A DNA stretch of 64,000 bases from an uncultured Candidatus Rokubacteria bacterium (lineage in GTDB: Bacteria > Methylomirabilota > Methylomirabilia > Rokubacteriales > DASRDR01): the NCBI GenBank assembly GCA_963708025.1, contig CAVPSB010000015.1, positions 64,001-128,000 of the forward strand. Reading direction: 5' to 3'. The notes beneath the pieces were generated by a model, which saw only the letters and a program-made list of their open reading frames with translations, made no database searches and was not told the origin of the DNA. Every line of letters starts with the position of its first letter. Position 1 is the stretch's first letter. Below are positions 9,500-9,668 of the stretch, piece by piece. The position numbers and the translations under genes were made by a program.

Positions 9500-9668
9500 T
9501 GGCCCGACCTTGCAGGATGCGGGCTCTGGCGGCCCTGGCAACTGTTCGGGCTCGTCAAGGATCGGACGTGACGACCCACGCTCACCCACGGCCTCTTCAG
9601 ACCCAGGGGGAAACGATCTGTCACGTCCAAGGCAACGGACCACGCTCTCATGAGCGGTCCGACTCGGA
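9500..9668 (-). ncRNA. Predicted bridge RNA (5' hairpin, target-binding loop, donor-binding loop)
   Basis: TBL stem GGACGTGAC/GTCACGTCC (9564-9572, 9620-9628) encloses TTTCCCCCT and GGGTGAG; DBL stem CCCGA/TCGGG (9503-9507, 9546-9550) encloses ACAGTTGCC and TGCAAG; exact RNA ends are not determinable. Confidence 0.85.

Follow-up and report, generated by a model that had tools for sequence, protein, structure and literature searches.

A candidate IS621-type bridge RNA in the left end of an IS110-family element from a GC-rich Rokubacteria genome

In the stretch of DNA analysed here, a window of 64 kb from an uncultured Candidatus Rokubacteria bacterium, a recombinase gene of the IS110 family is preceded by a non-coding region. 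The question raised by this locus is whether the region encodes a bridge RNA, with guides that would specify the target and the donor in recombination, or is an ordinary leader of the gene. A preliminary description had proposed the former, with guides for the left and right halves of the target (LTG and RTG) and of the donor (LDG and RDG) carried by two loops. We examined the anatomy of the element, its recombinase, the fold of the proposed RNA, homologous loci and the target repeats in the source genome. As a result, we consider it very probable that the upstream region encodes a genuine bridge RNA. Coordinates are those of the window, and all features of the element and its flanks are described on the minus strand.

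The element, its ends and its recombinase

The IS110-family element extends over 8514-9681, with a length of 1,168 bp including both copies of a CT core. It sits in repeated intergenic sequence, where it interrupts a three-hairpin REP. The intergenic site is flanked by a 500-aa ORF (6931-8433, plus strand), whose 3' end faces it, and by a 320-aa ORF (9836-10798, plus strand) rich in hydrophobic stretches, which faces it with its 5' end. Sequence reading placed the left copy of the core at 9680-9681 and the right copy at 8514-8515. Sequence reading and the ends of homologues gave the two donor halves, with the right donor half (RD), TGTAT, at the left end of the element (9675-9679) and the left donor half (LD), ACAGTTG, at its right end (8516-8522). 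The left boundary reads TACCCCC-CT (9688-9680) followed by TGTAT, and the right boundary ACAGTTG-CT (8522-8514) followed by CACCC. The REP is split into a left part at 9682-9745, comprising hairpin 1, the 5' arm of the central hairpin and the left target (LT; positions 1-7, TACCCCC, at 9688-9682), and a right part at 8481-8513, in which the right target (RT), CACCC at 8513-8509, is followed by hairpin 3.

The recombinase CDS (316 aa, 8534-9481; stop codon 8533-8531) was defined by its ORF and by domain matches, and is preceded by a GGAG ribosome-binding site at 9495-9492. Its product is a DEDD/Tnp protein, with 88.4 bits to PF01548 (cutoff 29) and 63.1 bits to PF02371 (cutoff 21.3), and matches the NCBIfam equivalog NF033542, 'IS110 family RNA-guided transposase', with 221.4 bits (cutoff 140). 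The best solved relative was the IS621 transposase (8wt6; 137 bits, E = 7.8e-39, residues 5-304), followed by the ISCro4 transposase (9t56; 135 bits, E = 3.5e-38, residues 3-304). Residues D11, E55, D97, D100 and S235, at positions counted by hand, align with D11, E60, D102, D105 and S241 of IS621, which are named as catalytic in the available portion of PMC11208158. The predicted protein is a full-length IS110-family enzyme in which the five catalytic residues are kept. Its relation to IS621 is distant (316 aa here, 328 residues in the solved IS621 chain), and ISCro4, compared by protein alone, is a distant orthologue of the same fold family with nearly the score of IS621.

The Pfam domains are common to both branches of the family, and would equally be found in a member of the IS1111/seekRNA branch, with a guide RNA downstream of the recombinase gene. 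The IS1111 group (seekRNA/right-end bridge RNA) belongs to the same recombinase family and follows the same RNA-guided principle, but has its RNA in the right end and long sub-terminal inverted repeats (PMC11208160). Here, reading of the minus strand over 7800-10200 located both RNA loops in the left non-coding end, which measures 198 nt from the core to the ATG. The right end is short, with 15 nt from the stop codon to the right core, 7 of them LD, and only 11 nt (8530-8520) separate the stop codon from the donor motif GACAGTTG-CT. Long left ends with left-end bridge RNAs are features of the IS110 group (PMC11208160), and the layout of that group was found in full: a long left end, a short right end, termini free of long inverted repeats and a core of 2 nt at each junction. 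As IS621 and ISCro4 are, in addition, the best-scoring solved relatives, membership of the IS1111/seekRNA branch seems barely conceivable, and we place the element in the IS110 group.

Guides, loops and fold of the predicted RNA

The left end would encode a bridge RNA of ~160 nt, from about 9665 to 9503, consisting of a 5' hairpin, a target-binding loop and a donor-binding loop. The 5' hairpin, GGACCGCUC-AUGA-GAGCGUGGUCC (9637-9660), was present in the minimum free energy (MFE) fold of the single sequence, and the length of this region varies among homologues. The target-binding loop with its closing stem occupies 9564-9628, as indicated by direct reading, the alignment fold, stem covariation and a covariance model, and the stem pairs GGACGTGAC (9628-9620) with GTCACGTCC (9572-9564). 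Within this loop, LTG (UUUCCCCCU in RNA letters, 9605-9613) was identified by covariation with the target; as DNA, TTTCCCCCT, it is identical at 7 of 9 positions to the left flank TACCCCCCT (9688-9680), and the final 6 nt are all the same. It is followed by the inner stem-loop GGUCU-GAAG-AGGCC (9590-9603), in which GGTCT (9603-9599) pairs with AGGCC (9594-9590) and two of four pairs are changed on both sides. RTG (GGGUGAG, 9581-9587), also identified by target covariation, is as GGGTGAG (9587-9581) the exact reverse complement of CTCACCC (8515-8509). After RTG stands the target-loop handshake dinucleotide CG (9579-9580), whose C can pair with donor G7 but not with target C7.

The donor-binding loop and its closing stem CCCGA/UCGGG (CCCGA 9550-9546 with TCGGG 9507-9503) span 9503-9550. 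Both donor guides, LDG (ACAGUUGCC in RNA letters, 9537-9545) and RDG (UGCAAG, 9509-9514), were identified from the sequence and from comparison with the donor. LDG, ACAGTTGCC as DNA (9545-9537), is identical to the right end ACAGTTGCT (8522-8514) at 8 of 9 positions, and RDG, TGCAAG (9514-9509), pairs with CTTGTA (9681-9676) with one G-T wobble among six pairs. The two are separated by the inner stem-loop GGGC...GCCC (9521-9535; GGGC 9535-9532 with GCCC 9524-9521), and RDG is followed by the donor-loop handshake dinucleotide GU (9507-9508), whose G can pair with target C7 but not with donor G7. The four guides, two closing stems and two inner stems of the preliminary description were thus all located where it had placed them in a minus-strand reading, with the 5' hairpin seen in the MFE fold, and its figures for the guide matches (7/9, 7/7, 8/9 and six pairs with one wobble) were reproduced.

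In IS621, the left guides share the top-strand sequence and the right guides are complementary to it, according to the available portion of PMC11208160. In the present element, LTG carries the top-strand sequence of the left half of the target, so that pairing with the bottom strand would be expected. LDG and RDG would act likewise on the joined ends of the element, ACAGTTG-CT-TGTAT.

When folded alone, the sequence was marginally more stable than its shuffled versions (z = -1.85, not significant), and its MFE structure paired the guides with each other and did not draw the donor-binding loop as proposed. Such marginal stability favours an alternative in which the region is an ordinary 5' untranslated leader, for example one serving translational control, while the protein alone picks the site and the likeness between guides and flanks is a coincidence or a by-product of recombination. 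The composition of the site points in the same direction, as the target is C-rich and the source genome (8.17 Mb) has a GC content of 71%, which makes short matches cheaper than in a balanced genome.

Folding of a 49-sequence alignment (A1) with RNAalifold recovered the stems of the preliminary description. Over 21 pairs, 92.0% of the alignment cells were standard pairs, compared with 81.4% in shuffled alignments and 35-54% when the partners were slid. Changes on both sides were present in 13 of the 21 pairs (105 cells), and none of 500 shuffles reached any of these measures. Most of the stem covariation came from the closing stem of the target loop, and the stems of the donor loop are almost invariant. 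A leave-one-out covariance model, built from 48 homologues with the window sequence excluded, matched 9631-9501 at full length with 124.9 bits (E = 1.3e-27), and all 21 pairs were standard. This was the sole match in the 64-kb window, and the two matches found in the 8.17-Mb genome correspond to the two copies of the element.

A scan of Rfam 15 gave no match to a bridge-RNA family at the gathering score. The only Rfam match, sX15 (RF02234) at 9499-9643, lay on the opposite (plus) strand; it scored 22.9 bits (E = 0.4), below the gathering score of 55, and was rejected. Read in reverse complement, the conserved donor-loop motif CCCGAACAGUUGC is contained in the sX15 consensus. In the accessible part of PMC3300014, sX15 and asX7 are described as complementary plasmid RNAs confirmed by northern analysis, with 10 chromosomal homologues in Stenotrophomonas maltophilia K279a. 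From what that part reports, the sX15/asX7 pair of Xanthomonas, described in 2011 before bridge RNAs were known, may represent an IS110 bridge RNA and its antisense transcript.

Covariation of the guides with targets and donors

Homologous loci were collected in a scan of one genome per species, from which the best 80 of 548 relatives (55-65% aa identity) were kept. These 80 came from MAGs labelled Nitrospirota, Dehalococcoidia, Gemmatimonadales, Actinomycetota, Methylomirabilota and others. Sixty-five of the loci could be parsed and, together with the present element, provided 66 rows. The other 15 of the 80, with a contig end or a missing anchor motif, were left out of the covariation counts; readable half-sites in four of them (L047, L048, L054 and L105) agree with their guides. 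The readable ends are common to all loci, CT-TGTAT on the left and (G)ACAGTTG-CT on the right, and the flanks differ. In all 66 rows, TGTA at the chosen left end follows CT, a count to be read together with the parser's own requirement for CTTGTA.

RTG was compared with the five variable bases of the right flank, and matched at 5/5 in 51 of the 66 rows, at 4/5 in 7, at 3/5 in 5 and at 1/5 in 3. In a permutation test with one row per distinct guide pair (n = 46), RTG scored 4.52/5 with its own flank and 1.55/5 in cross pairings, and LTG 4.83/7 and 3.43/7, respectively. None of 10,000 permutations reached the observed sum for either guide. We also carried out an unbiased scan of every A1 column against every target position, in which the positions of the guides were not assumed. 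Columns 57-61 (9587-9583) were assigned to target positions 14-10 with a complementarity of 0.86-0.96, and columns 22-26 (9611-9607) to target positions 3-7 with an identity of 0.59-0.94. The scan found no sensible partner column for target positions 1-2 and 15-16, and the guide is not followed at LT positions 1-2, where identity is 0.35 and 0.28. As only positions 3-7 and 10-14 were assigned, the target that is naturally specified in this subfamily is 5 + CT + 5. On the guide side, LTG positions 3-7 (9611-9607) co-vary with the flank and 9606-9605 face the core; RTG 9587-9583 is complementary to target positions 14-10 and 9582-9581 to the core.

These results are difficult to reconcile with an ordinary leader. 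Guides located 70-100 nt into the element vary together with their flanks, position for position, over 36 different right halves and 43 different left halves, each side keeps its own strand rule, identity on the left and complementarity on the right, and the observed match was beyond all of the permutations. In addition, the homologous IS621 has the same architecture, which is experimentally established in the part of PMC11208160 available to us. We therefore regard the leader explanation as very improbable, and favour a bridge RNA. Alignment with homologous left ends, which the preliminary description had put forward as one way to check its reading, brought out both the stems (in the 49-sequence alignment) and the covariation between guide and target (in the 66 rows).

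The three poorly fitting rows, with an RTG match of 1/5, were L044, L057 and L063. The last two belong, with L055, to a set of three copies that share their guides and lie on a single chromosome of a Dehalococcoidia MAG. One of the three sites matches both halves, that of L057 matches the left half only, and that of L063 matches neither. This pattern points to insertion off target or at half-matched sites, or to rearrangement among the copies. Half-match recombination is the subject of a 2026 preprint (10.64898/2026.08.31.748434), which may, from its accessible text, bear on such rows. A Nitrospirales MAG chromosome carries eight copies of a single orthologue with identical guides (L034-L041), at sites that all read (A/G/T)CCCCTC-CT-TACAA, with an RTG match of 5/5 in 8 of 8, an instance of one guide and one repeated target.

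The donor is nearly invariant among the homologues, and the evidence on the donor side is therefore mostly conservation. At ten loci with variants in LD or LDG, some of which share ancestry (L055, L057 and L063 are in one genome), the same change was present in both in 8 cases, despite a separation of more than 1 kb. RD positions 10-12 could pair with RDG in all of 52 distinct rows. At RD position 12 the pair is a G-T wobble in 88%, and an A-T pair where RDG has A, so that pairing is kept. The LDG base that faces the second core position is C rather than U, here and in 28 of the 52 rows. [quoted passage not shown]

According to the available portion of PMC11208158, the handshake dinucleotides 3' of RTG and RDG form pairs at positions 6-7 with the non-cognate DNA once the strands have been exchanged, and have to avoid pairing there with the cognate DNA. 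The base after RTG was C in 59 of 59 rows, and pairs with donor G7 and never with target position 7 of its own row. The base after RDG was G in 53 of 59 rows; 54 of the 59 allow it to pair with target position 7, and 2 with donor G7. The predicted handshake positions fit the published rule, by conservation and not by covariation.

We compared the element with known systems. IS621 from E. coli, with a bridge RNA of 177 nt, resembles it in the DEDD RuvC-like and Tnp domains with five aligned catalytic residues, in an RNA located in the long left end, in two loops that carry LTG/RTG and LDG/RDG under one strand rule, in handshake positions 3' of RTG and RDG, and in a CT core, a REP target and a promoter rebuilt across the joined ends. 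At the level of sequence, the element has every feature by which an IS621-type bridge system of the IS110 group is recognized. There are also differences. The natural RTG here pairs with the core and five bases, all five co-varying, whereas the RTG-RT pairing of wild-type IS621 is 4 bp, extended to 7 by design, according to the available portion of PMC11208160. Five LT positions co-vary, not seven as in IS621. Donor positions 6-7 are T and G here and A and T in IS621, a comparison that relies on the bases named in the accessible text of PMC11208158. The LDG base at the second core position is usually mismatched here, unlike in IS621.

Among other IS110-family elements, ISPpu9 (PMC12288879) and ISPpu10 (10.64898/2026.03.19.712850) of Pseudomonas putida, known to us by description in parts of these sources, lie in REPs or in one conserved intergenic sequence. 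Some copies of ISPpu9 are described there as having an sRNA gene downstream of the transposase, and the short right end of the present element holds nothing comparable. The subfamily, as defined by the same ends and the donor-loop motif, is already in print among the alignments that supplement Durrant et al. 2024, judging from occurrences of its motifs. In the portion of supplementary file 3 of PMC11208160 available to us, the donor-loop 14-mer occurs at least 102 times and the closing-stem 15-mer at least 6 times, in sequences with the same ends. Three 16-nt words and two peptide words of this element had no occurrences in the available portion of the PMC11208160 supplements, of which file 3 is a gapped alignment.

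Target repeats, excision and implications

The genome contains two copies of the element, which differ by one synonymous change (at 9113) over 1,168 nt and both have open frames. Both interrupt one and the same repeat, at different REPs. The REP-like unit, uninterrupted at L005:1440-1560, is ~100 nt long and is predicted to form three hairpins as single-stranded DNA (fold z = -6.0), with the CT core in the 3' arm of the central hairpin. An uninterrupted REP at C13:~439,310-439,384 reads GGTTTCCCCCTCACCCTG, which corresponds to LTG at 9 of 9 positions and then to the complement of RTG at 7 of 7. The exact 14-mer specified by the guides occurs at two sites in the genome, and at eight when up to one mismatch is allowed, all eight in REP context. 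The 12-mer TCCCCCTCACCC occurs at 11 sites, 8 of them in REP context. The occupied sites read TACCCCC and TCTCCCC, compared with TTTCCCC in the guide (differences at positions 2-3), and the perfect sites are unoccupied. The preliminary description had stated that the element is programmed to a GC-rich REP; the insertion target is indeed a REP, and an unoccupied REP matches the guides exactly. The context of the right half of the REP was found at 68 places in the genome, and CCCCCTCACCC at 39.

A promoter and terminator scan of the integrated locus found no sigma-70-like promoter on either strand and no terminator. When the ends were joined in silico, TTGACA-17-TATATT was formed across the core, with 11 of 12 matches to the consensus. 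The -35 hexamer TTGACA (8529-8534) overlaps the stop codon, and the -10 hexamer TATATT lies at 9672-9677; the promoter would be complete only in the excised circle. Among the homologues, junctions with at least 9 of 12 matches were found in 32 of 47 distinct joined ends, compared with 1 of 65 integrated left junctions, counts that, like the hexamers themselves, derive from consensus matching alone, and the sigma-70 consensus may not describe the promoters of this host. Excision of IS621 reconstitutes a promoter across the joined ends (PMC11208160). In the present element, expression is probably coupled to excision, through a near-consensus sigma-70 promoter that exists only with the ends joined.

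The absence of a sigma-70-like promoter and a terminator from the integrated copy would also be expected if the bridge-RNA element were silent or decaying, a fossil whose RNA or enzyme is no longer made or active in the host. This possibility gains from the presence of only two copies in 8.17 Mb despite at least eight REP sites within one mismatch of the 14-mer, and from the search of 60 relative genomes, in which no near-identical copy was found (best 71% over 1,077 nt) and which consequently gave no further insertion sites of this very element. On the other hand, the two copies stand at different REPs only one synonymous base apart with their frames intact, the five catalytic residues are kept and all 21 model pairs are standard. 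Furthermore, the bRNA of IS621 is itself weakly expressed from integrated loci, according to the accessible part of PMC13626964, so that low expression in place is the normal state. We consider a fossil unlikely, and favour an element that is intact and was recently active.

Public sequencing runs were also compared with the element. Sequence near-identical to 8480-9720 (at least half of the sampled words) was present in at least 16 runs, mostly soil, bog and freshwater-sediment metagenomes, and some part of this region in at least 20 runs from 16 studies; the source sample may be among the best-matching runs. An RNA library (X16) contained assembled contigs over 9368-9751, 8893-9048 and 8509-8827; they differ from the window by 6 letters and 6 gaps, and represent a variant copy, possibly through DNA carry-over, and are not evidence of transcription. 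A joint of 8513 to 9680 in another run (X13) was considered as an excision product and rejected, as the contig has 9 other letters in 76, which identifies an uninterrupted REP paralogue rather than an excision event at this copy. The contigs of the four public runs aligned with the element contained no circle junction.

Taken together, 8514-9681 very probably represents an insertion sequence of IS621 type within the IS110 group, intact and recently active. By analogy with IS621, the RNA would be transcribed with ends close to those predicted above and would be bound by the recombinase. A recombinase tetramer holding one RNA would bridge the excised circle and a REP site nnTCCCC-CT-CACCC, and strand exchange would take place at the CT core. 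If the guides act in this manner, the system may also be programmable, and the label of candidate programmable recombinase seems reasonable.

Whether the locus provides a bridge system that is live and compact (316 aa, 1.17 kb), originating in a soil bacterium of 71% GC and with a layout usefully unlike that of IS621, namely a 7-nt RTG and a 5+2-nt LTG, 12 specified target bases and a near-invariant donor and donor loop, is a matter to which we give slightly under an even chance. If true, the near-invariant donor and donor loop across orthologues from many phyla would offer a portable chassis. If active in E. coli or in vitro with the donor ACAGTTG-CT-TGTAT and the target TTTCCCC-CT-CACCC, the system would be a GC-adapted orthologue with naturally extended RTG pairing. 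One genome here displays four guides, handshake bases, an unoccupied cognate site and a predicted excision-dependent promoter, and would serve as a clean natural example. The case also indicates that bridge RNAs can be recognized from raw sequence by a first-stage reader. The state of knowledge is unchanged by these results, as the mechanism, the family-wide covariation and sequences of the subfamily are already in print in the available portion of PMC11208160. The element is a well-supported but ordinary member of the bridge-RNA family described in 2024, and would add one more orthologue, with a naturally long right target guide, to a family of genome-engineering interest.
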